Numbered from the stretch's first letter, positions 23,908 through 34,398 are shown. The stretch: DNA of 56,690 bases from Candidatus Thalassarchaeum sp. (GCA_030748335.1 JASMMD010000003.1:1-56690), one strand, 5' to 3'. Numbers and translations: made by a program. Notes: generated by a model from the letters alone, not told the origin.

Positions 23908-25050
23908 TCAGTCGCCCTTCCACTCGCGGTACTGTATCCACTCTTCCTTCATGTACTCGTTGATCAGCTTCTCCTCGTCCTCCTCAGTGGGTAGGACGGC
24001 CGAGAGGTACTCATCCCAAGCAACATCATCGCCCTCGAAGTCCTCGCCATGTACTGTGTAGCGCTTACCGGCGTACTTGCCGATTCCGCGCTTGAACTTG
24101 TCAGATGGGATGTAGAGCTCCGGCTCGCCCTCCTTGCGGACCTTGCTGATTCTGCGCATCTCGTCGCGCAACTCCTGGAAATACAATTCTCTGCTGGCTT
24201 CGTTCAGATGCTCTCTGTCTGCGGGCTCCTGCGCCTCTCGTTCGTCGTATCTGCCCTTGACTCCGTAGACATATGCCCACTGTGCACTAGTAGAGTCGTC
24301 CGTACCGAACAGATCCAGGCCTGTACTAACCCACTTGTTGAGGTACTTCTGAAGCAACGCGCAGGGGATTACGCCCTGTTTCACTATCCGTCGCAGGCCA
24401 TTGGCTCCAGTTCCGAGATGGAAAGACTCCTCTTTGAGCATCGGACCCATGCTAGCGGCTAGTGGCTTGAAAGACGAGGTGCTAAGCATCTTGAGTTGAT
24501 ATTTGCCATCACGGTCGATGAAGTGGGTGAAGCAGAAGAAGTCAAGCCAGTGGTCGATTGGTGCGTTGAAAGAGCCCAGAATCCTAGTGCCCTCCTGAGC
24601 GTTCCTCTCGAGTAGCTTGGCTGCCTCGCGCATACCCTGCTCACCAAAGAATGTGCAAAGAAGATAGGCCATCTGCCAGCCGTGCCGCTGCTCTTCACAC
24701 ATGATTCGCAGAGCCGATTTACGGTCGTACTCGGTCGGCGCCGAGGCCAGCAGATGATTCTGTTGCTCAACTGATGCGAACTCTGTGTCGCCTTGGACAC
24801 TCACCATGTTGATGATGGCGTCTCGAATGGTCTGCTGGGGGATTTGCATCCTACGATTCCACTTCGGTTTGCCTTCGAAGTCGCCGAACTCGATTTGGTT
24901 ACCAGCAGTGTCCCAGTCGAACTTGATGTCGAAGCGGTAGTCACCGAGCCACGAAGGATCGAAGCCTATTCTGGTCTGCCACTCATTGAAGTCGTCAATC
25001 CATCCCTCAAAGTTCTGAGTGTAGTCAGCGACCACTTCAGTATCCGCCAT
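23908..25050 (-). CDS. Diiron-carboxylate oxygenase resembling benzoyl-CoA 2,3-epoxidase subunit B (BoxB) / PaaA superfamily
   Basis: Two ExxH motifs (CEEQRHGWQMAYLL and LKEESFHLGTG). Blocks VQGDTEFASVEQQNHL and FTHFIDRDGKYQLKML match my recollection of BoxB-family conserved blocks. Start set to MADTEV (ATG at 25050). Confidence 0.65.
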   Translation of the reverse strand: MADTEVVADYTQNFEGWIDDFNEWQTRIGFDPSWLGDYRFDIKFDWDTAGNQIEFGDFEGKPKWNRRMQIPQQTIRDAIINMVSVQGDTEFASVEQQNHLLASAPTEYDRKSALRIMCEEQRHGWQMAYLLCTFFGEQGMREAAKLLERNAQEGTRILGSFNAPIDHWLDFFCFTHFIDRDGKYQLKMLSTSSFKPLAASMGPMLKEESFHLGTGANGLRRIVKQGVIPCALLQKYLNKWVSTGLDLFGTDDSTSAQWAYVYGVKGRYDEREAQEPADREHLNEASRELYFQELRDEMRRISKVRKEGEPELYIPSDKFKRGIGKYAGKRYTVHGEDFEGDDVAWDEYLSAVLPTEEDEEKLINEYMKEEWIQYREWKGD

Positions 25051-25099
25051 AATCTCCCGACTCCCTTTTCGCTTTTGAAGTAATATCCGAACGTACAAA

Positions 25100-25753
25100 T
25101 CAATCCTTGGGGCTCTTTCTCCGGACCGAGTCGGAGAATTCTTCGATTATCCTGTGCTCGATGAGTTGAATCATCTCGCAGAGTGTCGATTTGGAGACGT
25201 CTACCTTACTTGCCAAATTAGTCAAGGTAATCCTCCTCGGAGTGTCGTAGTACCCGTGCCTCACTGCGAGATCGAAGACTTCTCTCTGTCGCACAGTGAG
25301 CAATCTCGACTCCCCTACCTTCGATAGTGAGTGAATCTTGTGATGCAATCCTAACTTATTCAGCCCCTCCACCAGATTCTTCATGTGCATGTTGTCAGTG
25401 ACGAATTCCCAATCTACCCAGCCGTCCCTGACTTCGAATGGGGTGTGGGGTAGCACCTCAGCCTCGATCAGAGGCCGCAGGAACCCGCCCCCCCCTTTCA
25501 TGATGGTGATGTTGATTTCGACCGAGTCGGCGTGTTCATCGAAGAATAAGACAGCCTCGACCCCTGGGTGTGAAGACAGTTCATCCTTGAACTTCTGCAG
25601 TCCGTACCCGCTGGCCCTCCCTCGAGCCGAGCCACGGCCCTTGGATAGGGCCATGTGCTCTTCTATTCGCAAAATGATATGGTGGTTGGACCTCGAAACA
25701 TCACCGGCCCAGTGACCGTCCGGCAGACGTATCGATATGTACAGATGCTGCAT
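25100..25753 (-). CDS. HTH_10 (Bat/DmsR/NarO-type) transcription regulator
   Basis: C-terminal LTVRQREVFDLAVRHGYYDTPRRITLTNLASKVDVSKSTLCEMIQLIEHRII is the typical haloarchaeal-type HTH_10 domain. Start set to MQHLYISIRLPDGHW (ATG at 25753), which matches the usual N-terminus of this family. Confidence 0.75.
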   Translation of the reverse strand: MQHLYISIRLPDGHWAGDVSRSNHHIILRIEEHMALSKGRGSARGRASGYGLQKFKDELSSHPGVEAVLFFDEHADSVEINITIMKGGGGFLRPLIEAEVLPHTPFEVRDGWVDWEFVTDNMHMKNLVEGLNKLGLHHKIHSLSKVGESRLLTVRQREVFDLAVRHGYYDTPRRITLTNLASKVDVSKSTLCEMIQLIEHRIIEEFSDSVRRKSPKD

Positions 25754-25784
25754 CGCCACCCCTGCTCCTCTCAAGGCTCCTTCT

Positions 25785-26438
25785 TTATTCATCTTCGTCA
25801 CTCACCTCTGTCCTCGCACCACCATGCGGGATGATGTGGACTATGATTAATGAGGCCGCAAGACCGAGCAGGAACGGGGGCATCAAACTGGGCTCCCCCG
25901 CTCCAGGGGAATCGTCACTGGGTGGCCCCTTCATCAATCCGGTGAGCACCGACCACGCGTCGTCGGAATCAGCGGTACCATCTCCATCTACGGTGTTCGC
26001 ATACACGCGGTAACTGATGTCGCGGGCGTATGAGGATGGCGCAGTCCAGATGACAGTCCACGTCCTGTCCATATTGCCCGACTCTGTATGGGTGGCCTCA
26101 CCGTCCACCACATGCACCGCATCGTCGAGTACAGACAGGCTTCCGGCATCCACATGCAGGTTGAATCCCCCCAAGGCGCTGCCGTCCTCACTGACCGAGC
26201 TCAGGGCGGTGATTGAGATCTCGTACTTGACAGAGGCTTCCCACTTCTCTGGGAATCCTGTGACTTCTATGCTCACGCTGTCGCTAGCTATCCCTCCACC
26301 ATGGCACAAGCAGCCGTGCTCCACCGCTTCTCCAGTGATGCCAATGGGATAGGACATTGTGGTGGGGGCCAAGACGGTGAAAATAATGAAGAAAAAGCAT
26401 GCCAGCCATCTAGAGACACAAGGTCCCTTATTTTCCAT
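25785..26438 (-). CDS. Exported, C-terminally anchored protein made of one Reeler-like CxCH domain (paralog of the CoxA N-terminal domain)
   Basis: Signal peptide (WLACFFFIIFTVLAPTT), domain with GCLCHGG..GGFNLHV..ATHTESGN..WTVIWTAPSS..NTVDGDG, Pro-rich linker, TM (FLLGLAASLIIVHII), acidic tail. Clearly alignable to residues ~45-190 of the 26524..28713 ORF. Confidence 0.8.
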   Translation of the reverse strand: MENKGPCVSRWLACFFFIIFTVLAPTTMSYPIGITGEAVEHGCLCHGGGIASDSVSIEVTGFPEKWEASVKYEISITALSSVSEDGSALGGFNLHVDAGSLSVLDDAVHVVDGEATHTESGNMDRTWTVIWTAPSSYARDISYRVYANTVDGDGTADSDDAWSVLTGLMKGPPSDDSPGAGEPSLMPPFLLGLAASLIIVHIIPHGGARTEVSDEDE

Positions 26439-26446
26439 CTAGACCC

Positions 26447-26499
26447 CCGAACATGGGTGGTATACCGAAGTCAATCACACTCGTCCCGAACATGTTCGG
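26447..26499. promoter_or_regulatory. Candidate operator pair upstream of the Reeler-like gene: perfect palindrome CCGAACATGTTCGG (26486-26499) plus half-site CGAACATGGGTGG (26448-26460), flanking TATA-like GGTATACC
   Basis: Read directly. The palindrome core is CGAA-N4-TTCG. The same words recur upstream of coxC and nirK. Confidence 0.45.
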
Positions 26500-26523
26500 T
26501 TCATTCTGTTAGTGTGTCTACCA

Positions 26524-28689
26524 TCACTCAGTCATCTCAGGAAGCACATCGAAGTCGTGCTTAGGAGGTGGGGAGGAGGTGGACCATTCGAAAGTGGTAG
26601 CGTTCCAAGGGTTGTCACCTGCCTCATCGCCTGATTTCATGCTACGGATGAAGTTCCAGAAGAATATCAGCTGGGCTACGAATACCACCAACGAGCCGAT
26701 TGTGGAGAACATCTGCTCGGTTGCCCAGCCAGTGCTTTCTTCGTAGACATAGATCCTGCGGGGCATGTCCCACATCCCGAAGAGTGGGATGAAAGTTAGA
26801 TTGATTCCGAGGAAAGTCAGCCAGAAATGCCACCAACCAAGGGTCTGGTCCAGCATCCGGCCGAACATCTTTGGGTACCAGTAGTAGATTCCGCCGAGAG
26901 TCATAACCGCAACAGAACCTAGGGTGTAGTGGAAGTGAGCCACAAGGTAGTAGGTTCCTCTGAGTTGAACGTCCATCGCTAAGCTGGAGAGGTAAACTCC
27001 GGTAATTCCGCCAATTAGGAAGATACCAATTGCCCCCATAACAAACGCTAGAGGAAGTTTGGTGAAGTCAGGTTTTGATTTGTAGAAAGTACCCAATAAA
27101 CTCAGGTATATTAGCCCGAAAGGCACAGAGATGAGTTCGGTTCCAATACTTTCGATTTTCCTGAAGGTTGGATCTATTCCAGTGAGGAACATGTGATGGG
27201 CCCAGACGAGTACGCTGAGAACAGTTGCCACAGTCAAGGCCCAGAGGATTATTCGCCGGCCATACAGATGCCGTCGTACAAACGTCGGAACAATCTCCAT
27301 TGCCATGCCTAGTCCAGGTAGTAGCACGACGTAGACCTCAGGGTGTCCAAAGAACCAGAAGATGTGTAGCCACCAAGTAGTACCATCAATGGAAGGATCG
27401 AAGAACATCGTACCGAAAACCCGGTCACCGACCAGCATCAACACCGCGCCTAGGAGTGCTGGGAATATCACCAACATCAGAATTACAGTAAATAGCATTG
27501 TCCAAGTGTACATCGGCATTTGCATCAATCCCATACTGGGGATACGGTGTCTGAGAATTGTGACTAGGAAGTTGATGGTCGAAGCAGTAACGGATAGGAT
27601 TAGCAGGACCAGACCCGCTCCAGCGAGAGACACCCCCGCACCAGGAGTGTACTCGATGCTAGTCAATGGCGAGTAGAAGGTCCATCCCACATTCGCAGCA
27701 CCACCAAAGAAGAAGCCCGAGGCTGCAGTCAGTCCGCCTAGCACATAGGCCCAGAACGAGAATGCGTTCAGCCTTGGGAAAGCCATGTCCCTAGCCCCAA
27801 TTTGCAAGGGGACCATGTAGTTCGCGAATGCGAACGCCATCGGAGAGACGGCGAAGAGCACCATTACAGCACCGTGCATGGTGACTGCTTCGTTGAACAA
27901 TCCCCCTGTCATGAAGTCGTTATTCGGCACCACTAGTTGCAGGCGAATAAGTATGGATAGTGCTAGGCCTATCACGGTGAAAATAATCGATGCCCACAGG
28001 TAAAGCAATCCGATGTCCTTGTGGTTAGTCGTGCTCAGCCAGTGGATGAGTTCGGCCTTGCCGAAGTTCTCCTTGCGCCACAACACGATGACGATGTGCA
28101 GTATGATTACCAGCAGCGCGCCTACAATAATCAACCAGGCTGGCTCGTATATGTCGATGAGCGATCCAGAGCCAGCGTTCACTCCCGCGACTTTGAACTC
28201 GAGAATGTTCCAGTGGTCTTCCGAGTTCGCTGTGGAATCACCATTCACCGAGTTCACCAGGAGGACGAACTCAGCGACAACGTTGTCGGAGCTGGGTGTG
28301 ACCCACTCGATTTGCCAAGCACGCTGGTCATTGCCCTCTTCGGTGTGTGTGGCAGAACTTTCCATAATCTGAACCGATTCGTCGACGGCGACCAGACTGC
28401 CTCGGTCGACCTTCAGGTTGAAGCCGCCAAGATTCTCTCCGCCAGCATCAGGCCCGCCAGTGAACGAGATGTCCAAGATATAGGCCTCCCCAGCGACAAA
28501 GGTCTCCGGCAGACCTTCAATTGATGGAATCACGCTTTCATCTGCCACAGAGCTGTGGCAGCTACATCCGTTGTTGATGCTTGCACCGTTAATCCCCGAC
28601 GGCAGAGCGCCTAACTGCGGAGTCAGGGCCAACAACAGCGATAGAGCCAGCAGGGCACCGAGGTAGCGCTTCTGTCGCATTGGGAGCAT
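26524..28689 (-). CDS. coxA: Heme-copper oxidase subunit I (A-type) with an N-terminal exported Reeler-like CxCH domain and one extra TM helix
   Basis: The canonical core starts at HWLSTTNHKDIGLLYLW and includes WFFGHPEVY, WAHHMF and VAHFHY. It is preceded by a signal-like MRQKRYLGALLALSLLLAL, a ~150-aa domain (NGCSCHSS..GGFNLKV..ATHTEEGN..WQIEWVTPSS..NSVNGDS) and TM0 (PAWLIIVGALLVIILHIVIVLW). The start at 28689 overlaps the coxB stop (TGATG). Confidence 0.9.
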   Translation of the reverse strand: MLPMRQKRYLGALLALSLLLALTPQLGALPSGINGASINNGCSCHSSVADESVIPSIEGLPETFVAGEAYILDISFTGGPDAGGENLGGFNLKVDRGSLVAVDESVQIMESSATHTEEGNDQRAWQIEWVTPSSDNVVAEFVLLVNSVNGDSTANSEDHWNILEFKVAGVNAGSGSLIDIYEPAWLIIVGALLVIILHIVIVLWRKENFGKAELIHWLSTTNHKDIGLLYLWASIIFTVIGLALSILIRLQLVVPNNDFMTGGLFNEAVTMHGAVMVLFAVSPMAFAFANYMVPLQIGARDMAFPRLNAFSFWAYVLGGLTAASGFFFGGAANVGWTFYSPLTSIEYTPGAGVSLAGAGLVLLILSVTASTINFLVTILRHRIPSMGLMQMPMYTWTMLFTVILMLVIFPALLGAVLMLVGDRVFGTMFFDPSIDGTTWWLHIFWFFGHPEVYVVLLPGLGMAMEIVPTFVRRHLYGRRIILWALTVATVLSVLVWAHHMFLTGIDPTFRKIESIGTELISVPFGLIYLSLLGTFYKSKPDFTKLPLAFVMGAIGIFLIGGITGVYLSSLAMDVQLRGTYYLVAHFHYTLGSVAVMTLGGIYYWYPKMFGRMLDQTLGWWHFWLTFLGINLTFIPLFGMWDMPRRIYVYEESTGWATEQMFSTIGSLVVFVAQLIFFWNFIRSMKSGDEAGDNPWNATTFEWSTSSPPPKHDFDVLPEMTE

Positions 28690-29423
28690 CAGGCAACACC
28701 TCCAGAATACCACATATCGAAGTCATCCTTCTCCATCACTTCTAACACACCTATCATGATGGTGTGTTCGTCACCACATAATTCGAAACACCTGACTGGG
28801 TATGTTCCAGTCTCCTCAGCCTGAATCCAACCGGTGTTCACACGCCCCGGTATCGCATCCACCTTGATTCGGTGTTCGGGCAGGGCATAGGAGTGGAAGA
28901 CGTCACCACTCGTCACCTCGAAGACGACGGGCACATCCACCGGCACACGCAAAGGCTCTCCTGATGCGCTGGTGTAGGATATTCCATTGGGATACTGGTA
29001 GTCCCAGTAGTACTGATATCCCGTGATTTCGACAGTGAACGAGTCATCGGTAGTGTGCTCTTCGTGCTTCTCAAAGAAATCGATGGAATCGAATGTGACG
29101 TCGGAGAGCACTAATAGGAACAGGGCGATGACAATAGTAATGCCCCACGCGACCCTATTGTCTCCCCTCTCTTCCGGTCTCTGACCGATTCTCATGTCAT
29201 CACCCGATCCGTCAGATTCGGTTGTCAGCAGCCACAGGAAGTAGATGTACACCCCCATGCCTATCACAGTGCCTAGGCCCCAGTAAAGAGTGAACAACTC
29301 GTCATACACCTCAGCATGGGCACCCGTGCCCCCAAGTCCCTGAAACCAGTTGAAGATGGAAGCGAAGGTCAGTGCTAGGATGACGATGCTGGCGGAAATA
29401 ATGCCAAATGTTCTCCTATCCAT
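28689..29423 (-). CDS. coxB: Heme-copper oxidase subunit II (CuA), no cytochrome c domain
   Basis: Two N-terminal TMs. CuA ligands in FHSYALPE...CFELCGDEHTIM. The start at 29423 overlaps the coxC stop (TGATG). Confidence 0.9.
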   Translation of the reverse strand: MDRRTFGIISASIVILALTFASIFNWFQGLGGTGAHAEVYDELFTLYWGLGTVIGMGVYIYFLWLLTTESDGSGDDMRIGQRPEERGDNRVAWGITIVIALFLLVLSDVTFDSIDFFEKHEEHTTDDSFTVEITGYQYYWDYQYPNGISYTSASGEPLRVPVDVPVVFEVTSGDVFHSYALPEHRIKVDAIPGRVNTGWIQAEETGTYPVRCFELCGDEHTIMIGVLEVMEKDDFDMWYSGGVA

Positions 29424-30229
29424 CAAATCACCTCCAGATAGACGACGAGGAAGAGGACGATCCAAACGGCATCGACGAAGTGCCAGTACATCGTGACAGC
29501 GCGGTAACCGTCGTGCCTGTCTGTAGACATGTGCCCGTTACGCATCAGCACTGCTACCACGATGAACACCAGCAGCCCGACCAGGACGTGCAGTCCATGC
29601 AGCCCTGTCAGTGAGAAGAAGGCGGTGCCGTAGGGATGATCGCCCCACAGGAACCCGGCATTGGAGTACTCGTACATCTGGATTGCCAAGAAGGCCAAGC
29701 CCAATGCTATAGCCGCATAGAGCGACTTGCCCGCCTCTTGCAGACGCCCTTCGCTGTGAAAACCGGCTGAGTAGTGCGCGAGCACGCCCGAGGATAGCAG
29801 CAGGACGGTGTTCAGGCCGACCAGAGCTATGTCGTGCTCCACCCCGGTCGCTGGCCATGAGCCCCCCACCGCATTTTCCCAACTCAATGTGTGCCAGCGG
29901 GCCCAGAACCAGTACGCGAAGAACGAGGCGAATATTATGCACTCGGTTATGATAATCCACACCATCGCCCATGAGGCGTCCCCCCAATCCCCTGCCGAGG
30001 ACCGAGTGGGTCGGTAAGGCCAGAGGTCGACTTCTTCTCTCATCCAGTTAGATATCGAGAGCACGAGGAGTGGTATCCCGAGGACAGCGAGGGGCCATAT
30101 CAGCAGTCCACCGAGACACAGCGTCACGGAGAGAGCGAGCATGATTGGAGCGAGACTGGAATGAACTTCTCCCTCTCCGTCTTTCTCAACATACTCAGAC
30201 ACAATGTTCTCTACTTCACTAGCGGACAT
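29423..30229 (-). CDS. coxC: Heme-copper oxidase subunit III
   Basis: Motifs FFSLTGLHGLHVLVGLL and MYWHFVDAVWIVLFLVVY; polytopic. GGTGAGG Shine-Dalgarno-like sequence just upstream of the ATG. Confidence 0.88.
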   Translation of the reverse strand: MSASEVENIVSEYVEKDGEGEVHSSLAPIMLALSVTLCLGGLLIWPLAVLGIPLLVLSISNWMREEVDLWPYRPTRSSAGDWGDASWAMVWIIITECIIFASFFAYWFWARWHTLSWENAVGGSWPATGVEHDIALVGLNTVLLLSSGVLAHYSAGFHSEGRLQEAGKSLYAAIALGLAFLAIQMYEYSNAGFLWGDHPYGTAFFSLTGLHGLHVLVGLLVFIVVAVLMRNGHMSTDRHDGYRAVTMYWHFVDAVWIVLFLVVYLEVI

Positions 30230-30282
30230 GACCTCACCGCTTGTGGCCTAGATACACGGAGCATTACTGAGTCGCCTTACAA

Positions 30283-30318
30283 GTTCGGTGATGCCATTAA
30301 CACCGAACCGGTTCGGTG
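30283..30318. promoter_or_regulatory. Candidate operator upstream of coxC (and of the divergent 30353 gene): perfect 18-bp palindrome CACCGAACCGGTTCGGTG (30301-30318) plus an extra GTTCGGTG copy (30283-30290)
   Basis: Read directly. The core is CGAA-CCGG-TTCG, located 54-90 nt upstream of the coxC ATG. Confidence 0.45.
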
Positions 30319-30352
30319 AGAATAGCAACTCCTTCCTCCCTATCCGCGACCC

Positions 30353-30970
30353 GTGGAGGAACCATCAGGCCAGGAAACGCCCCGCCGACTCCTAATCTTT
30401 CCAGTGCTCTTGGCATTGCTTCTGGCGGTCTCGCCGATTCTTCTGTTCGGAGACGATGCGGACAGCGGGGCGGTCTTGAGAGAGGATCTATCCGAGGCGC
30501 AGTTAGAGACTCTAGCGGGACTCGACTTCGCGAGGACGCCTGCAGATGTGAGGGGAGGTATGACCGCATTGAACCAGGCTTTCCTTCTGGATTCTGGCTC
30601 ACTGATTGTGGCGGGGACGTGGGAAGGTTCACTGGAGCTTGGAAATTGGTCCGATGAGTCCGTTGGCGGTAGGGATCTCTTCGTAGCTGAGTTGACTGCT
30701 GATGGAGATTGGTCCTCAGCCCATTTCGCTGGCTCTTCAGGCGAGGATTCTATCGCGTTACTCTCGATATCAGGAGATAGACTGTCCGTATGGGGTCGGG
30801 TGAACGGCGAAGCACGATTCGCCTCTGAGATTCTTGACCATCACACTGGATGGTCGCCGACAGCCTTCGAGGCACATCTCTACATTGACGAGGGTTGGCA
30901 GAGAGTCTGGCAGATAGACGATGAACTGCTGCCCGTTTCCTCAACCAGCCTGTGGTGCGGCTTCGCGTGA
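30353..30970 (+). CDS. Hypothetical exported protein
   Basis: GTG start, signal/TM (LLIFPVLLALLLAVSPILLF), then an acidic beta-rich region (..LFVAELTADGDW..). No family recognised. Confidence 0.45.
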   Translation: MEEPSGQETPRRLLIFPVLLALLLAVSPILLFGDDADSGAVLREDLSEAQLETLAGLDFARTPADVRGGMTALNQAFLLDSGSLIVAGTWEGSLELGNWSDESVGGRDLFVAELTADGDWSSAHFAGSSGEDSIALLSISGDRLSVWGRVNGEARFASEILDHHTGWSPTAFEAHLYIDEGWQRVWQIDDELLPVSSTSLWCGFA

Positions 30971-30971
30971 T

Positions 30972-31415
30972 TCACATCTGCTCGAAAATCTGTTGCATCC
31001 CAACTATCAGATTCATAGTCTCCTCGAGACAACCCGTCTGAGTCACCCGGCCAATGATTTCGCCGTCCGCGTTTACCACGTATAGCCGACGAATCTCCTC
31101 CATCAACAGCATTTTCAGGACCGAACCTACGGGCAGATCCTCTTCGATAGTCACTAGGGGGTAACTCATGATGTCACTCAATTCCATCTCAGAAGGGTCT
31201 TCACCCGGACGGAAGCATTTTCTGAGCAAGTCTCTCTCTGTCACAACTCCTTCAGGCTGCCCCCTACGGGTCACAATGACAGACCAGACTCCAGCATTAT
31301 GCATGGATTCCATCGCCTCGGTGACTTTCGTACGTTCACTCAGGCAAACCACGTTATTGTCAATCATCTTGCTCATGCTGAATTCGAAATTCATCATCCA
31401 TCCCTTATCATTCAA
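30972..31415 (-). CDS. CBS-domain pair protein
   Basis: Two CBS repeats (VVCLSERTKVTEAMESMHNAGVWSVIVT..GVVTERDLL and PLVTIEEDLPVGSVLKMLLMEEIRRLYVVNADGEIIGRVT). Confidence 0.8.
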   Translation of the reverse strand: MNDKGWMMNFEFSMSKMIDNNVVCLSERTKVTEAMESMHNAGVWSVIVTRRGQPEGVVTERDLLRKCFRPGEDPSEMELSDIMSYPLVTIEEDLPVGSVLKMLLMEEIRRLYVVNADGEIIGRVTQTGCLEETMNLIVGMQQIFEQM

Positions 31416-31445
31416 TTTCCTGCACTACAGAATAGGTTCCCGGCT

Positions 31446-32879
31446 TTACTCGCCGTTTTCGTCATAGACAGTCGTGTCTTCAGCACCAGTGACTTCGATG
31501 ATTCCGATAGCTCCCTTGTGGAAAGCACGGGTCAAAGCGTGGTCAACTAGGATGTAGTTTGCTGGTACTTCGAATGATAGGTCGACAACAACTGCTCCAC
31601 CAGGTGGTACGAGTACAGTTTGTACACTCACCATAGGATCATCACCTACGGCTCCATAATTCCAAACAGTGTCAAAGATTTCTCCGATGACGTGGAAGGA
31701 TGAGATTGTGTTAGGCCCCCCAACTCCGAAGTAAATTCGCATGGTTTCACCAACGTTTGCCTTGATGGTGTTCTCTCCGGTGAATCCGTGGAACTTGCCG
31801 TTGAAGACAACATATGTTGGGTTTTCATCGAACATTGCAACATCGTCGAACTCTTGGTGACCATCCGTTCCAGGCTTCCACTTTGTGTAAATGTCGCCTT
31901 GCATGATGTAAATCTCTTTGTCAACTGTCGGGAGAGGAGTCTCCGGCTCGATGAGAATCATTCCATACATTCCCTTGCTGATGTGAGTTGGCACGTCAGG
32001 TGTGGCACAGTGGTAGACGAATAGTCCAGCGTGTTGTGCAAGGAAGGAGAAGGAAGTAGTCTCTCCAGGTGCGGTTCCGGTAGCTGCTGCCCCGCCTCCT
32101 TGCCCAGTAACTGCGTGAAAGTCGACGTTGTGGTTCATTGTGCTCTCAGCGTTATTGCTGAAGTGAACGACCACAGTGTCCCCAACACGTGCTCGGAACA
32201 TTGGACCAGGAACTGTACCATTATATGTCCAGTAGGCGAAAGTTGTACCATCTTCAATCTCTGCAGTCACTTCGACAGCTTCCATGTAAATATGAACAGT
32301 TTCAGCTATATCACGGTCGATCGGTGCTGGCATCAAGAAAGGATTGCGGGAAATATCGTCAGTATCTACAGCGAGTGCAGCACCAATTTCCTCAACAATT
32401 GCTCCGGTGTTACCACCTTCGCCGACAATGAATGCGCCTTCCATGCCGCCGGAACGGTGGCCTGGAATTGTACAGTAGTAAGCGAATGTCCCTTCATCGT
32501 CTGCGATGAAAGTAAAGGAATCTTGGCTTCCTTCAGCATTCAATTGCTCAGTAGCGATGTTGTATCCTTCGATTTCAATATCGTGGATATTGATTTCTCC
32601 CATGGTTAGTGTTATGGTGACTTGGTCACCAACATCAACAGCAAGATCAGGATTTACTAATCCGTCAATATCGCCACCGACACCAATAAATTGCATCATT
32701 TCGGCACGCAGTGTGTAGGAAACTTCGTCGAATGTAACAACTGGTACACACTCATCTCCAACTAGTCCTGTGCCATCACCGCACACAATATCAGGGCCTC
32801 CTCCAACACACCCCGCAATCGAAGTAACTATCAACAGCAATGCCAAGGAAGTCGCTCCAGTTTTCTTCATTCCATTCAT
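31446..32879 (-). CDS. nirK: Copper-containing nitrite reductase NirK with an N-terminal fused cupredoxin domain; lipobox-like signal
   Basis: LLLIVTSIAGC lipobox-like signal. Extra type-1 Cu domain (NIHDIEI..YYCTIPGHRSGGM). NirK core: HNVDFHAVTG, VYHCATPDVPTHISKGMYGMILIEP, SFHVIGEIFD, LVDHALTRAFHKGAIG. Start set to MNGMKK (ATG at 32879); the ORF track TTG is at 32930. Confidence 0.8.
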   Translation of the reverse strand: MNGMKKTGATSLALLLIVTSIAGCVGGGPDIVCGDGTGLVGDECVPVVTFDEVSYTLRAEMMQFIGVGGDIDGLVNPDLAVDVGDQVTITLTMGEINIHDIEIEGYNIATEQLNAEGSQDSFTFIADDEGTFAYYCTIPGHRSGGMEGAFIVGEGGNTGAIVEEIGAALAVDTDDISRNPFLMPAPIDRDIAETVHIYMEAVEVTAEIEDGTTFAYWTYNGTVPGPMFRARVGDTVVVHFSNNAESTMNHNVDFHAVTGQGGGAAATGTAPGETTSFSFLAQHAGLFVYHCATPDVPTHISKGMYGMILIEPETPLPTVDKEIYIMQGDIYTKWKPGTDGHQEFDDVAMFDENPTYVVFNGKFHGFTGENTIKANVGETMRIYFGVGGPNTISSFHVIGEIFDTVWNYGAVGDDPMVSVQTVLVPPGGAVVVDLSFEVPANYILVDHALTRAFHKGAIGIIEVTGAEDTTVYDENGE

Positions 32880-32967
32880 TTTCACTATCTTATTTTTCAA
32901 GGTCTTCTCCTCCGCGGGTTTTGCCCACAATGGGTAGGGGAATGAAACCTAACTTACAACATAGTCA

Positions 32968-33026
32968 CGAACATGGGAGGTGTTTGAAATCACACCTAGT
33001 GCCTGTTCGGAGATGTTCGGAACAGG
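32968..33026. promoter_or_regulatory. Candidate operator cluster upstream of nirK: CGAACATGGGAGGT (32968-32981), hairpin AGGTGT-N8-ACACCT (32978-32997), and inverted repeat CCTGTTC-N11-GAACAGG (33002-33026) containing a tandem GTTCGGA x2
   Basis: Read directly. CGAACATGGG(A/T)GGT is shared with 26448-26461, and CCGAACAT (complement of 33013-33020) is shared with the 26486 palindrome. Confidence 0.4.
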
Positions 33027-33056
33027 AGTTAGGGCAGACTCCGGAATTCCAATCCT

Positions 33057-33491
33057 GTGGCATTTGATTTACACACCTTGAGATTGGCAGGCGGAGAGGC
33101 AGCTGCACAGTGGGCAATGGAGCAGGAGAACTGGGTTATCATCGGTATCGACCACGAGGAGGACCACCTTAGTCTGAGATTAGTCAGAGAGTTGCAGAAA
33201 CTCGGTAAATCGGTACATCTGGTTTGTCCTAGATGTGCTAGGGATGGAATCAAGCTGCTCGGTCTGCCAGTTTACGAGTTCATCGAGGACATAGACGAGC
33301 AGGTGGATGTCATCAGCCTGCATGGAGACGTGGATCAGTGGACATTAGCCCCTCATATCTCACAGAGAATGCAGTGGTACGGAGACATCAAGGTGATTTG
33401 GCCTCCCGAGAATTTAGTCGACGATAGGTGGGTGTCCGAGATGTACGATTACGGAATTGCAGTTGCCTACAACTGTCGGCTGCCCATATAG
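33057..33491 (+). CDS. CoA-binding-domain protein (YccU/COG1832-like)
   Basis: NWVIIGIDHEEDHLSLRLVRELQKLGKSVHLV..GLPVYEFIEDIDEQVDVISL fits the small Rossmann-like CoA-binding fold pattern. An alternative ATG start lies at 33117. Confidence 0.45.
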   Translation: MAFDLHTLRLAGGEAAAQWAMEQENWVIIGIDHEEDHLSLRLVRELQKLGKSVHLVCPRCARDGIKLLGLPVYEFIEDIDEQVDVISLHGDVDQWTLAPHISQRMQWYGDIKVIWPPENLVDDRWVSEMYDYGIAVAYNCRLPI

Positions 33492-33507
33492 AGGCCGATT
33501 CGGATTC

Positions 33508-34398
33508 TCAATTCCCATCGAACTCTGGTACTTCTCGCTTGACGTAGGCGGCTATGCCCTTCTTGGCATCACCGCTTTGGAAGAGGTCTGACTGCAACTC
33601 CCTCTCGAGAGCGAGATGGTACTCAAGAGGTATTTCCATGCCGCTCTGGACACTGCGCTTGATGTTCCCAATTGCCTTGCTGGCAGCATAGGGTAGGGTG
33701 AACTGGCCAGCGTAGTCTAGGATGTCCTGGCGAAACTCGTCGAGGCTACCGGCCCAGACGTCATGAACTAGATCCATTTCCTTAGCTTCCTCATACGAGA
33801 ACTTACGTCCAGTGACCATAATCTCCATTGCCTTCGCTTTACCGACCAGACGAGACAGTCTGGCGGTTCCGCCGGTACCCGCGAGGACGCCTAGGGAGAC
33901 CTCGGGCAGACCGACCTGTCCAGAGTCCTTGCGACCGATTCGAATGTCGGCCGCCATGGCAATTTCGAGGCCGCCTCCGACGGCGTGACCGTTGAGGGCG
34001 GCGATAACGAGCTTGGGGGTCTGCTCAAGCCTGCTCAGGGTCTCGTTGGCGTGAAGGCAGAAGAAATACTTGAATCCAGGACTGACAGAATCAAGCATAC
34101 TGATGCTGGCTCCTGCTGAGAAGAACTTCTCGCCGTGCCCTGTCAGCATGATTACCGTCACATCATCGTCGAAGCGAGCCTTCAGTACGGCCTCGTCGAT
34201 GTCCCGCATCATCGCGTGGGTGTAGGTGTTCACCGGGGTCTTTCCCTCGGTCAATGGGTCACCGGCCGAATCTGAGCACAGCTCGATGACGGCTATTCCG
34301 TTGTCCGTCACGCCGTAGTTCACGAGGTTGTTCGGCATTGGCTGCATATCTGGCCAAGAGGTCATGCCTGCGCCAATGAGGGACTCCATATCAACCAA
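33508..34398 (-). CDS. Enoyl-CoA hydratase/isomerase family protein
   Basis: Motifs FFSAGASISML, LNGHAVGGGLEIAMAADIRIG, GLPEVSLGVLAGTGGTARL. Confidence 0.8.
   Translation of the reverse strand: MVDMESLIGAGMTSWPDMQPMPNNLVNYGVTDNGIAVIELCSDSAGDPLTEGKTPVNTYTHAMMRDIDEAVLKARFDDDVTVIMLTGHGEKFFSAGASISMLDSVSPGFKYFFCLHANETLSRLEQTPKLVIAALNGHAVGGGLEIAMAADIRIGRKDSGQVGLPEVSLGVLAGTGGTARLSRLVGKAKAMEIMVTGRKFSYEEAKEMDLVHDVWAGSLDEFRQDILDYAGQFTLPYAASKAIGNIKRSVQSGMEIPLEYHLALERELQSDLFQSGDAKKGIAAYVKREVPEFDGN

Follow-up and report, generated by a model that had tools for sequence, protein, structure and literature searches.

Genes and repeated elements of the locus

The window, i.e., the whole 56,690-nt stretch of DNA analysed here, belongs to a Poseidoniales MAG (Marine Group II, Thalassarchaeaceae). 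It contains an island (Table 1) bounded at about 24.1-24.7 kb on one side and 34.0-34.3 kb on the other; in the flanks, identity to the congeneric MAG UBA623 drops to about 80%. GC content is 51-55% within the island and about 60% outside. Twelve congeners show an empty site, in which ECH adjoins the PaaA-like gene. As judged from these comparisons, the island is a horizontally exchanged, transferable unit in which the regulator and all its sites move together.

The product of the BoxB/PaaA-like gene reaches 213 bits against the TIGR03225 BoxB model, under the 499-bit cut-off. The Reeler-like gene is the first in the operon of an HTH_10 regulator and is separated from the regulator ATG by a 31-nt gap. 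The cox operon codes for an accessory oxidase, whose subunit I has an N-terminal fused choice-of-anchor V domain; a second, native cox operon is located on contig C28. No family match was found for the divergently encoded 205-aa protein in profile searches. nirK scores 349 bits with TIGR02376 (cut-off 296 bits) and is followed by a gene with a CBS domain.

Table 1. Genes and candidate regulatory elements of the locus (window positions; a point stands where no strand is assigned)
Feature	Position	Strand	Remarks
Island, about 10 kb	24100..34300	.	98-100% identical to congeneric MAG UBA623
BoxB/PaaA-like diiron oxygenase gene	23911..25050	-	Pfam PaaA_PaaC
Half-site GTTCGG (minus strand), PaaA-like promoter	25087..25092	-	ends 37 nt before ATG 25050
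Regulator, 217 aa	25100..25753	-	start ATG at 25753; orthologues also begin MQHL
Choice-of-anchor V ("Reeler-like") exported protein	25785..26438	-	NCBIfam NF041895, 3.8e-19
Proximal word ACCACCCATGTTCG	26448..26461	-	9 nt before ATG 26438; overlaps predicted transcription start
Perfect palindrome CCGAACATGTTCGG, predicted choice-of-anchor-V/regulator operator	26486..26499	.	12-mer ends 48 nt before ATG
coxC-coxB-coxA operon, accessory aa3-type oxidase	26524..30229	-	
Degenerate site CCGAACTTGTAAGG (cox orientation)	30275..30288	-	ends 46 nt before coxC ATG
18-bp palindrome, core CCGAACCGGTTCGG	30301..30318	.	GTTCG ends 37 nt before divergent GTG 30353
Membrane-anchored or secreted protein, 205 aa	30353..30970	+	syntenic with cox across the order
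nirK (three-domain copper nitrite reductase), then CBS-pair gene	30972..32930	-	
nirK half-site ACCTCCCATGTTCG	32968..32981	-	ends 37 nt before the predicted start of transcription at 32930
Near-palindrome CGGAGATGTTCG (33008-33019) in CCTGTTC..GAACAGG	33002..33026	+	ends 37 nt before GTG 33057
CoA-binding-domain protein gene, last of island	33057..33491	+	syntenic in G237

Every sequence feature described in the initial annotation was found again in the window, apart from one coordinate slip: the half-site of the BoxB-like gene, placed at 25082-25087, is CCGAAC at 25087-25092. The palindrome CACCGAACCGGTTCGGTG upstream of coxC is perfect over its 18 bp and is accompanied by a third copy of the short word, GTTCGGTG, at a distance of 10 nt (30283-30290). 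The palindrome upstream of the Reeler-like gene is perfect as well, the inverted repeat near nirK is present, and the second words do lie 42 nt (Reeler-like) and 43 nt (nirK) away. The proximal words of these two promoters have the 14-mer CGAACATGGG(T/A)GGT in common.

The full palindrome is rare. CCGAAC-N2-GTTCGG has three copies in the 1.16-Mb genome: two are intergenic, both of them in this window, and the third (C5:34953) is within coding-looking DNA reading ...PNMFGDI.... CCGAACNNGTTCGG has two perfect matches in the window, while shuffles give 0.17 even with one mismatch allowed, and a chance origin of the full palindromes is excluded. The short word CCATGTTCG alone, found twice against 0.58 expected in the window, is not significant and becomes meaningful only because of its position and the orthologous promoters. 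Likewise, the sites at nirK, the PaaA-like gene and the second cox position are half or degenerate, and on sequence alone each of them could be due to chance.

Conservation of the sites and their linkage to the regulator

Since the Reeler-like palindrome stands at the head of the regulator's operon too, autoregulation is implied; the regulator-operon promoters of orthologues carry CCCGAA(C/T)AT(G/A)TTCGGG. The proximal word of this promoter may serve as a half-site, either auxiliary or for negative autoregulation.

The sites of the cox promoter region exist as annotated, but the assignment of the 18-bp palindrome to cox does not hold: by position it would serve the divergent gene at 30353. In G061, the orthologue of this gene has a site 37 nt before an ATG opening the same MEE... 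N-terminus. The cox operator, as far as position tells, is the third copy at 30275-30288. The coxC-proximal position is also occupied in G061 (CCGAACCGGTTTGG) and G237 (CCGAACAAGTAAGG), and two sites are retained in diverged cox promoters.

A similar correction applies to nirK. Both elements are there, but the distal one has the right placement for the divergent CoA-binding gene, and the proximal word is the predicted nirK operator. From the end of this half-site it is 67 nt to the TTG at 32900, which has an SD ahead of it; in G096 the position of the half-site is taken by the full palindrome CGAATATGTTCG. nirK is present in 9/301 genomes. An alignment of nirK promoters shows no variation in ATGTTCG. 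Of the nine promoters, eight contain either exact ATGTTCG or the full palindrome; in the ninth, from G237, the variants CGAACATATACG and AACATGTTCTGG deviate by one mismatch each. Footprinting of cox, nirK and regulator-operon upstream regions in relatives has found full or half sites retained.

Among the targets, the BoxB/PaaA-like gene, and not cox or nirK, is the oldest and the best conserved. It adjoins the regulator in nearly all 80 loci compared; as partner and target of the regulator it is ancestral and found order-wide. In 67/67 Poseidoniaceae loci a perfect palindrome begins exactly 48 nt before the PaaA-like ATG and is followed by a conserved TATA-like ATAAGG and then by 20 freely varying nt. 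The half-site at 25087..25092 has the same position and is, by this alignment, a remnant of the PaaA-like operator. The single regulon suggested by the initial annotation is supported and would cover the oxidase, nirK, the Reeler-like and the BoxB-like genes.

The comparison set consists of 80 Poseidoniales loci with regulator orthologues, 800 kb in all, with a GC content of 41-64% and a protein identity of 43-57%. In these loci every perfect copy of CGAACATGTTCG, 81 in total, adjoins the regulator gene and 76 of the 80 loci have one, while a reversed control pattern has no occurrence in the same 800 kb. Poseidoniaceae genomes mostly contain one perfect copy per roughly 2 Mb, at the regulator/PaaA-like locus. 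Together with the 67/67 fixed spacing, the 81/81 adjacency effectively refutes a non-regulatory origin of the repeats, whether as chance palindromes or as structural or mobile-element features (e.g., att sites, terminators, island borders). Location in a recently exchanged island and the lack of significance of the short proximal word on its own could speak for such an origin, but the island borders are not at the palindromes, a loop-less 12-16-bp palindrome makes no terminator, the start-codon distance is fixed in non-island contexts, and the two perfect matches far exceed the shuffled expectation. We regard it as extremely improbable.

In Poseidoniaceae the site sits between the regulator and the PaaA-like gene, so linkage alone cannot tell the regulator's site from the target's; the two are separated only by loci with a site upstream of the regulator and by congeners without the regulator. 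The latter amount to a natural knockout: in 12 congeners the PaaA-like gene is kept while both regulator and site are absent. The palindromes are genuine and conserved sites. Their most likely binder is the neighbouring HTH_10 regulator, already named as the obvious candidate and by far the best one given its co-occurrence with the site (76/80 loci) and their joint absence in the 12 congeners. These two observations, and the travelling of the regulator with all its sites on one 10-kb island, make it very improbable that the palindromes are operators of a different, unlinked factor, with the HTH_10 gene a passenger or co-target. Such a factor might be sought in a second HTH_10 gene on C26 or, as the haloarchaeal motif was attributed to a protein with another N-terminal domain (PMC10062603), in NarO. 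However, the C26 gene, the only other HTH_10 match in the genome, is a 62-aa open frame, and no NarO-like protein was found in this genome.

The HTH_10 regulator and its haloarchaeal relatives

The regulator consists of an N-terminal tandem ferredoxin-like (divergent BAT-like) domain and a C-terminal HTH_10 domain (PF04967, residues 152-204, 8e-15, 54.8 bits against the 23.1-bit Pfam cut-off). Its AF2 model has a pLDDT of 88; Foldseek found no solved relative of the sensor domain, the best match having a TM of 0.44. The search for the BAT domain (PF15915) gave no match at E <= 1 for the window regulator; against the 25.8-bit cut-off, a Poseidoniaceae orthologue scores 16, the H. gibbonsii homologue 21 and the Halomicrobium one 29 bits. 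PFEVRDG and GHWxGD are the signatures of the family. Residues conserved across 38 regulator orthologues include H14, W15, M34, W112 and W115, and no cysteine column is invariant or nearly so across these orthologues. The conserved N-terminal cysteines of NarO have reportedly been proposed as an O2 or redox sensor. As a guess, the signal sensed by the window regulator is O2, NO or redox state.

The haloarchaeal CGAA-N4-TTCG motif mentioned in the initial annotation is real. With the consensus CGAAYATDKTYG, it is present in Haloferax mediterranei nar, nirK, nor and nos promoters (PMC10062603, PMC11218638). The nos and nor promoters carry CGAACATGTTCG, their activity is lowered when the motif is mutated, and motif-to-start distances are 66-79 nt (PMC10062603). 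In H. volcanii the motif was assigned to NarO, whose N-terminal domain differs (PMC10062603); NarO is an HTH_10 regulator required for denitrification of this species according to Hattori et al. (2016), as cited in PMC10062603. In the window, 26487-26498 within the Reeler-like promoter matches the consensus exactly, while 30304-30315 (CGAACCGGTTCG) keeps both arms with two central mismatches; CGAATATGTTCG and CGAACATATTCG are variants of the motif seen in orthologues. The Marine Group II palindromes match this haloarchaeal motif.

The likeness to H. mediterranei extends beyond the identical core: in both cases the motif occurs in nirK and respiratory metalloenzyme promoters, and in several promoters of one cluster. 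The host, on the other hand, is an oceanic member of Thermoplasmatota (Poseidoniales) and not of Halobacteria, the window regulon includes an aa3 oxidase, a BoxB/PaaA-like oxygenase and the regulator's operon but no nar, nor or nos, and in most Poseidoniaceae genomes the only perfect copy precedes the PaaA-like gene.

The haloarchaeal motif was confirmed; orthology of the regulator to NarO was rejected. BLASTP aligns only residues 95-208 (HTH_10 and linker) with H. volcanii NarO, at 26% identity, and the genomic context differs, with no nar genes within the examined 22-37.5 kb and with cox, nirK and the PaaA-like gene as neighbours. NarO shares with the regulator the C-terminal HTH_10, a length of about 210 aa, a location next to respiratory genes and a CGAA-N4-TTCG site (CGAATCCGTTCG), found in the narO-nar spacer. 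Its N-terminal domain, however, is unrelated and has neither the PFEVRDG nor the GHWxGD signature. The H. gibbonsii homologue of the regulator aligns with NarO over only 52 residues.

Full-length haloarchaeal homologues of the regulator do exist: they have 26-32% identity over 95-100% of the protein and a common PFEVRDG block, and a pairwise alignment with one of them reaches E 5e-28 over residues 1-211. A tblastn search with the regulator has matched 29 haloarchaeal plasmid records (at least 80% coverage, 24-32% identity). Homologues located within nirK/nor/nos clusters include those of H. gibbonsii (WP_115821563), H. borinquense (WP_006054673) and Halomarina (WP_254547008), and probably represent the group of H. 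mediterranei E6P09_00735, to judge by the description in the paper. In H. borinquense, CCGAACATGTTCGG lies 44 nt before the homologue's own gene. In three haloarchaeal loci (L148, L191, L193) 12 of the 14 sites are intergenic and the control pattern gives none. Like the window regulator, members of this haloarchaeal BAT/HTH_10 group are found in a nirK cluster with the motif in neighbouring promoters and before their own gene; unlike it, they reach or approach the Pfam BAT threshold, and the homology is distant. This distance, and the equally distant BAT/HTH_10 homologues of other Thermoplasmatota, count against the reading of the sites as operators of this regulator.

We tentatively suggest, at somewhat less than even chances, that the BAT-like/HTH_10 subfamily (GHWxGD...PFEVRDG) is the cognate binder of CGAAC-N2-GTTCG in both Halobacteria and Poseidoniales. 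If so, haloarchaeal nirK, nor and nos would have in this subfamily the master activator that has been missing, H. mediterranei being without NarO; regulator and operators would form an ancient cassette that crosses phyla and travels with respiratory metalloenzyme genes by horizontal transfer, and activation would follow one fixed geometry, with 37-38 bp between the site edge and the start.

Geometry of the sites and predicted mode of control

Site-to-start distances in the window are 37 nt for the PaaA-like gene, orf205, the CoA-binding gene and the predicted nirK transcription start; the two SD-led genes have 46 and 48 nt. In haloarchaeal loci, eight gene distances at seven sites fall within 38-40 nt and three within 67-69 nt. 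The haloarchaeal distances agree with the H. mediterranei range, and the 37 and 67 nt of the window match them.

From the sites themselves, their rarity, conservation, fixed geometry and co-occurrence with the regulator, all demonstrated by sequence comparison, we infer binding by this regulator and activation. The palindromes are thus quite probably operators of an autoregulated, probably activating BAT-like/HTH_10 regulator controlling all six island units. A dimer of the 217-aa protein would read CGAAC-N2-GTTCG, with CCCGAACATGTTCGGG as the optimum and the promoter-proximal half ATGTTCG(G) as the indispensable part of the operator. Each of the six transcription units would carry a site: the BoxB/PaaA-like oxygenase operon, the choice-of-anchor-V/regulator operon, coxCBA, the unknown exported protein, nirK-CBS and the CoA-binding protein.

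Alternatively, the same regulator may use these operators as a repressor or dual regulator, keeping the island silent until the signal comes. Negative control is frequent among autoregulated operons, the extra half-site of the Reeler-like promoter overlaps the predicted transcription start (26448-26457), and in G212 and G248 the perfect palindrome is downstream of a TATATAT box. We consider repression unlikely, since the site invariably occupies -48 to -37, just upstream of a weak TATA-like box, which is an archaeal activator position, and since the H. mediterranei mutations lowered rather than raised nos/nor promoter activity (PMC10062603).

In the preferred, activating mode the promoter-proximal edge of the site would be 36-38 bp upstream of the predicted transcription start and immediately ahead of the BRE/TATA region, in the position of archaeal activators helping to recruit TFB and TBP. 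Activators with a site abutting BRE/TATA, e.g., Ptr2 or TFB-RF1, are known in archaea. The present system, known from sequence, involves a different protein family but resembles them in having the operator edge at about 36-38 bp upstream of the start, just upstream of a weak TATA-like box.

Exchanged island and its promoter sites

The regulator gene lies together with an accessory cox operon and nirK in a region which is an exchanged island (genes and sequence elements are collected in the table). Between ~24.1-24.7 kb and ~34.0-34.3 kb, the DNA has 98-100% identity to the congeneric MAG UBA623 (G002; loci L035 and L036) and a GC content of 51-55% versus ~60% outside, while the flanking DNA has ~80% identity to UBA623. 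The breakpoints fall inside two genes, the PaaA-like one and the one for enoyl-CoA hydratase. In 12 other congeners these two genes directly adjoin each other, and the empty site lacks the regulator, cox and nirK. The ~10-kb island looks like a recent transfer via homologous recombination, the whole putative regulon and its regulator moving between species as one 10-kb unit. The island borders do not coincide with the palindromes, so a role of these as att sites or border elements was rejected. The genome has also retained its native cox operon, a second one, on contig C28. Both cytochrome oxidase subunit I genes (26524-28713 in the window and C28:2078-4210) code for an N-terminal choice-of-anchor V fusion with a CxCH motif; free-standing choice-of-anchor V paralogues are found on contigs C19, C42 and C62.

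Genes and sequence elements of the island and its edges in the window
Feature	Position	Strand	Remark
BoxB/PaaA-like diiron oxygenase gene	23911-25050	-	
HTH_10 regulator gene	25100-25753	-	
Choice-of-anchor V protein ("Reeler-like") gene	25785-26438	-	
coxA (fused to choice-of-anchor V domain), coxB, coxC	26524-30229	-	
orf205, exported protein without known family	30353-30970	+	
CBS-pair gene and bona fide nirK	30972-32930	-	TIGR02376, 349 bits vs 296-bit cut-off
CoA-binding protein gene	33057-33491	+	
Half-site before the boxB-like gene	25087-25092		
Common 14-mer	26448-26461 and 32968-32981		offsets 42 nt and 43 nt
CCGAACATGTTCGG	26486-26499		
GTTCGGTG copy	30283-30290		10 nt from 18-bp palindrome
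18-bp palindrome	30301-30318		
Inverted repeat	33002-33026		

Re-reading of the window recovered all the sequence features listed in the initial annotation (the 18-bp palindrome, CCGAACATGTTCGG, the common 14-mer with its offsets and the inverted repeat); the boxB-like half-site had been placed 5 positions off. The window contains CCGAACNNGTTCGG twice without mismatch, against 0.17 matches in shuffles even with one mismatch allowed, and the whole 1.16-Mb assembly contains it three times, the third copy being in coding DNA. Taken alone, the short proximal word does not reach significance in the window. In Poseidoniaceae the generic CGAACNNGTTCG pattern shows no genome-wide enrichment, its counts being close to those of the reversed control pattern. 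Only one form stands out, the ATG-centred one found at the regulator locus.

Several matches outside the window were considered. The one at C5:34953, the third copy of CCGAACNNGTTCGG, was rejected as a further target, as it sits in coding DNA. At C5:27229-27242, in the spacer of a purN-like gene and a gene for a small membrane protein, there is CCGGATATGTTCGG, one mismatch from the CCGAATATGTTCGG variant; this match (C5:27231) could be a further member of the regulon or have arisen by chance. CGAACTAGTTCG at C7:390-401 is in the leader region of 16S rRNA, a short way upstream of the gene; it may form part of an rRNA processing stem, and a link to the regulon is improbable. Half-sites placed 36-38 nt ahead of the first start codon of an ORF were only weakly in excess in a genome-wide scan, which gave no convincing further target.

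Distances were counted from the final G of the promoter-proximal GTTCG up to the start codon. In the window, the PaaA-like gene, orf205 and the CoA-binding gene all have a distance of 37 nt. The orf205 start is confirmed by the orthologue in another Poseidoniales genome (G061), where an ATG 37 nt after the site opens the same MEE... N-terminus; the orf205 starts were read by eye, in the window, G061 and G237. The nirK site is 37 nt from position 32930 and 67 nt from the TTG at 32900, the two being separated by a 30-nt leader with GGAGGAG, and in relatives the position 37 nt past the nirK site has a Shine-Dalgarno sequence and ATG after it, within 8-25 nt. For cox site 2 and the choice-of-anchor V gene the distances are 46 and 48 nt, and both have short SD-like leaders. 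By these distances, the perfect palindrome previously attributed to cox would serve the divergent orf205, leaving the weaker copy at 30275-30288 to cox, and the "distal nirK" element would serve the divergent CoA-binding gene, with the proximal word serving nirK. The site-to-gene assignment is changed by position in both cases. A site is present at 6/6 transcription units of the island.

Association of the site with the regulator gene in Poseidoniales

The locus set comprised 80 loci with regulator orthologues (43-57% identity, GC 41-64%, 800 kb in total). It contains 81 perfect copies of CGAACATGTTCG, and every copy adjoins the regulator gene, at most 120 nt downstream of it in 68 loci and upstream in 13; the reversed control pattern has no occurrence in the same 80 loci. 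Four loci are without a perfect copy: three of them have one-mismatch variants, and in the other a run of N takes up the position. In L024 and L088, from the CM001443 MG-II chromosome, an N run exactly covers the regulator/PaaA-like spacer where the palindrome is expected.

The palindromes are conserved in relatives. Poseidoniaceae genomes mostly have one perfect copy, at the regulator locus, and in 67/67 Poseidoniaceae loci its start lies exactly 48 nt ahead of the ATG of the PaaA-like gene. It is followed by 6-7 nt, a TATA-like ATAAGG and then ~20 nt which vary freely, and in most of these loci a half-site lies 14 nt upstream. This is a clean phylogenetic footprint of a predicted operator abutting BRE/TATA on a leaderless PaaA-like gene. 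In congeners which keep the PaaA-like gene without the regulator the motif is also absent and an unrelated palindrome is found instead, so the site tracks the regulator, not the target. In these island-less congeners (L169-L180) the spacer between the enoyl-CoA hydratase and PaaA-like genes includes a conserved inverted repeat, CGCACTCTnTAGAGTGCG, and then TTTGATATACC before the PaaA-like gene; the repeat may serve the upstream gene as a terminator, or it may be an operator of another regulator. In three cox and nirK loci (L111, L128, L162) the orthologue is immediately preceded by a paralogue of the regulator (33-36% identity), which has its own perfect palindrome and a half-site 14 nt downstream.

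In Thalassarchaeaceae loci of the order cox, choice-of-anchor V gene, regulator, PaaA-like gene, CCCGAA(C/T)AT(G/A)TTCGGG precedes the choice-of-anchor V gene, and where this gene is missing the same sequence directly precedes the regulator, which points to autoregulation. The most likely mechanism is autoregulated activation from a position directly ahead of BRE/TATA, where the regulator would activate six island promoters, that of its own operon included; binding by the regulator, the sign of regulation and the signal are inferred. This prediction is concrete enough for a test in vitro, as it involves a single protein, a site of 12-16 bp, six promoters and a constant spacing of 37 bp. Marine Group II archaea, which are uncultured, count among the most abundant archaea in surface seawater and in oxygen-minimum zones. 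We found no operator-regulator pair described for them in the literature searched; this one is apparently the first that is testable. It bears on how a lineage switches on its accessory oxidase and nitrite reductase genes, which matter for the loss of nitrogen from waters low in oxygen.

Sites in cox and nirK promoters

Two sites are kept in diverged cox promoters, at -86 and -58 in the window, G061 and G237; other cox loci have a distal near-palindrome and CCAACATGTTCGGG. An order-wide search has found nirK in 9/301 Poseidoniales genomes, scattered over both families, with nirK identity of 69-93%. Exact ATGTTCG or full palindromes are present in 8/9 nirK promoters, and in the ninth (G237) the variants CGAACATATACG and AACATGTTCTGG have one mismatch each. 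G096 has CGAACATATTCG and CGAATATGTTCG at the two nirK-promoter positions where the window copies are degenerate. The G237 promoter (L164) also contains a ~62-nt tandem duplication which doubles both CGAACATATACGAAC and AACATGTTCTGG elements. MAGs in which the regulator and cox are syntenic include several from oxygen-minimum zones or other oxygen-poor sites (ETNP, Saanich Inlet, Arabian Sea, Guaymas). Together with the scattered, rare nirK this suggests that the module has spread laterally more than once.

The regulator and its haloarchaeal counterparts

The haloarchaeal CGAA-N4-TTCG-type motif named in the initial annotation is documented in denitrification promoters of H. mediterranei, as CGAACATGTTCG at nos and nor and as CGAATATGTTCG at nirK. 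Its consensus is CGAAYATDKTYG, its position 66-79 nt before ATG, and motif mutation lowers nos and nor promoter activity (PMC10062603). A similar motif was reported, and NarO proposed as its regulator, by Hattori et al. (2016, as cited in PMC10062603), but NarO is absent from H. mediterranei (PMC10062603). The BAT/HTH_10 protein E6P09_00735 of the nirK-nor cluster has been proposed (PMC11218638).

Orthology of the window regulator to NarO was rejected, as only the HTH_10 domain can be aligned with H. volcanii NarO and the remainder of the protein cannot. In contrast, full-length homologues (26-32% identity, common PFEVRDG block) are BAT/HTH_10 proteins encoded on haloarchaeal megaplasmids, inside nirK/nor/nos clusters. 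The initial reading holds in substance: a single regulon, an operator of haloarchaeal type and, as the probable binder, the HTH_10 protein encoded alongside. Its NarO orthology, site assignment and core target need correction.

In the AF2 model (pLDDT 88) two beta-alpha-beta-beta-alpha-beta units of an ACT/ferredoxin-like fold precede the HTH. A Foldseek search with this model gave no informative solved relative (best match Ta1207, TM 0.44; none with E <= 0.001). H14, W15, M34, a GGGGF loop, PFEVxDGWVxW and the HTH are invariant or nearly invariant in orthologues. As there is no conserved cysteine among them, a NarO-like thiol sensor is unlikely.

Three of the five haloarchaeal loci examined have 4-5 CGAA-N4-TTCG sites each; 12/14 sites are intergenic, and the control pattern has no match in these three loci. 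The distance from site to annotated start is 38-40 nt or 67-69 nt, and in H. borinquense CCGAACATGTTCGG is located 44 nt before the gene of the regulator homologue. BAT/HTH_10 proteins of other Thermoplasmatota are about as distant from the regulator as the haloarchaeal homologues. Since this homology is distant, the cross-phylum claim rests on the common operator, context and geometry rather than on close sequence relatedness. These point to a non-NarO BAT/HTH_10 family as the candidate regulator for the haloarchaeal denitrification motif, nominating a specific family where the motif is known and the regulator unsettled. On Halogeometricum borinquense pHBOR02 (L191:5250-5261) a single CGAACGTGTTCG is located exactly 38 nt from the starts of the divergent DUF2249 and radical SAM genes, and it looks like a symmetric bidirectional operator.
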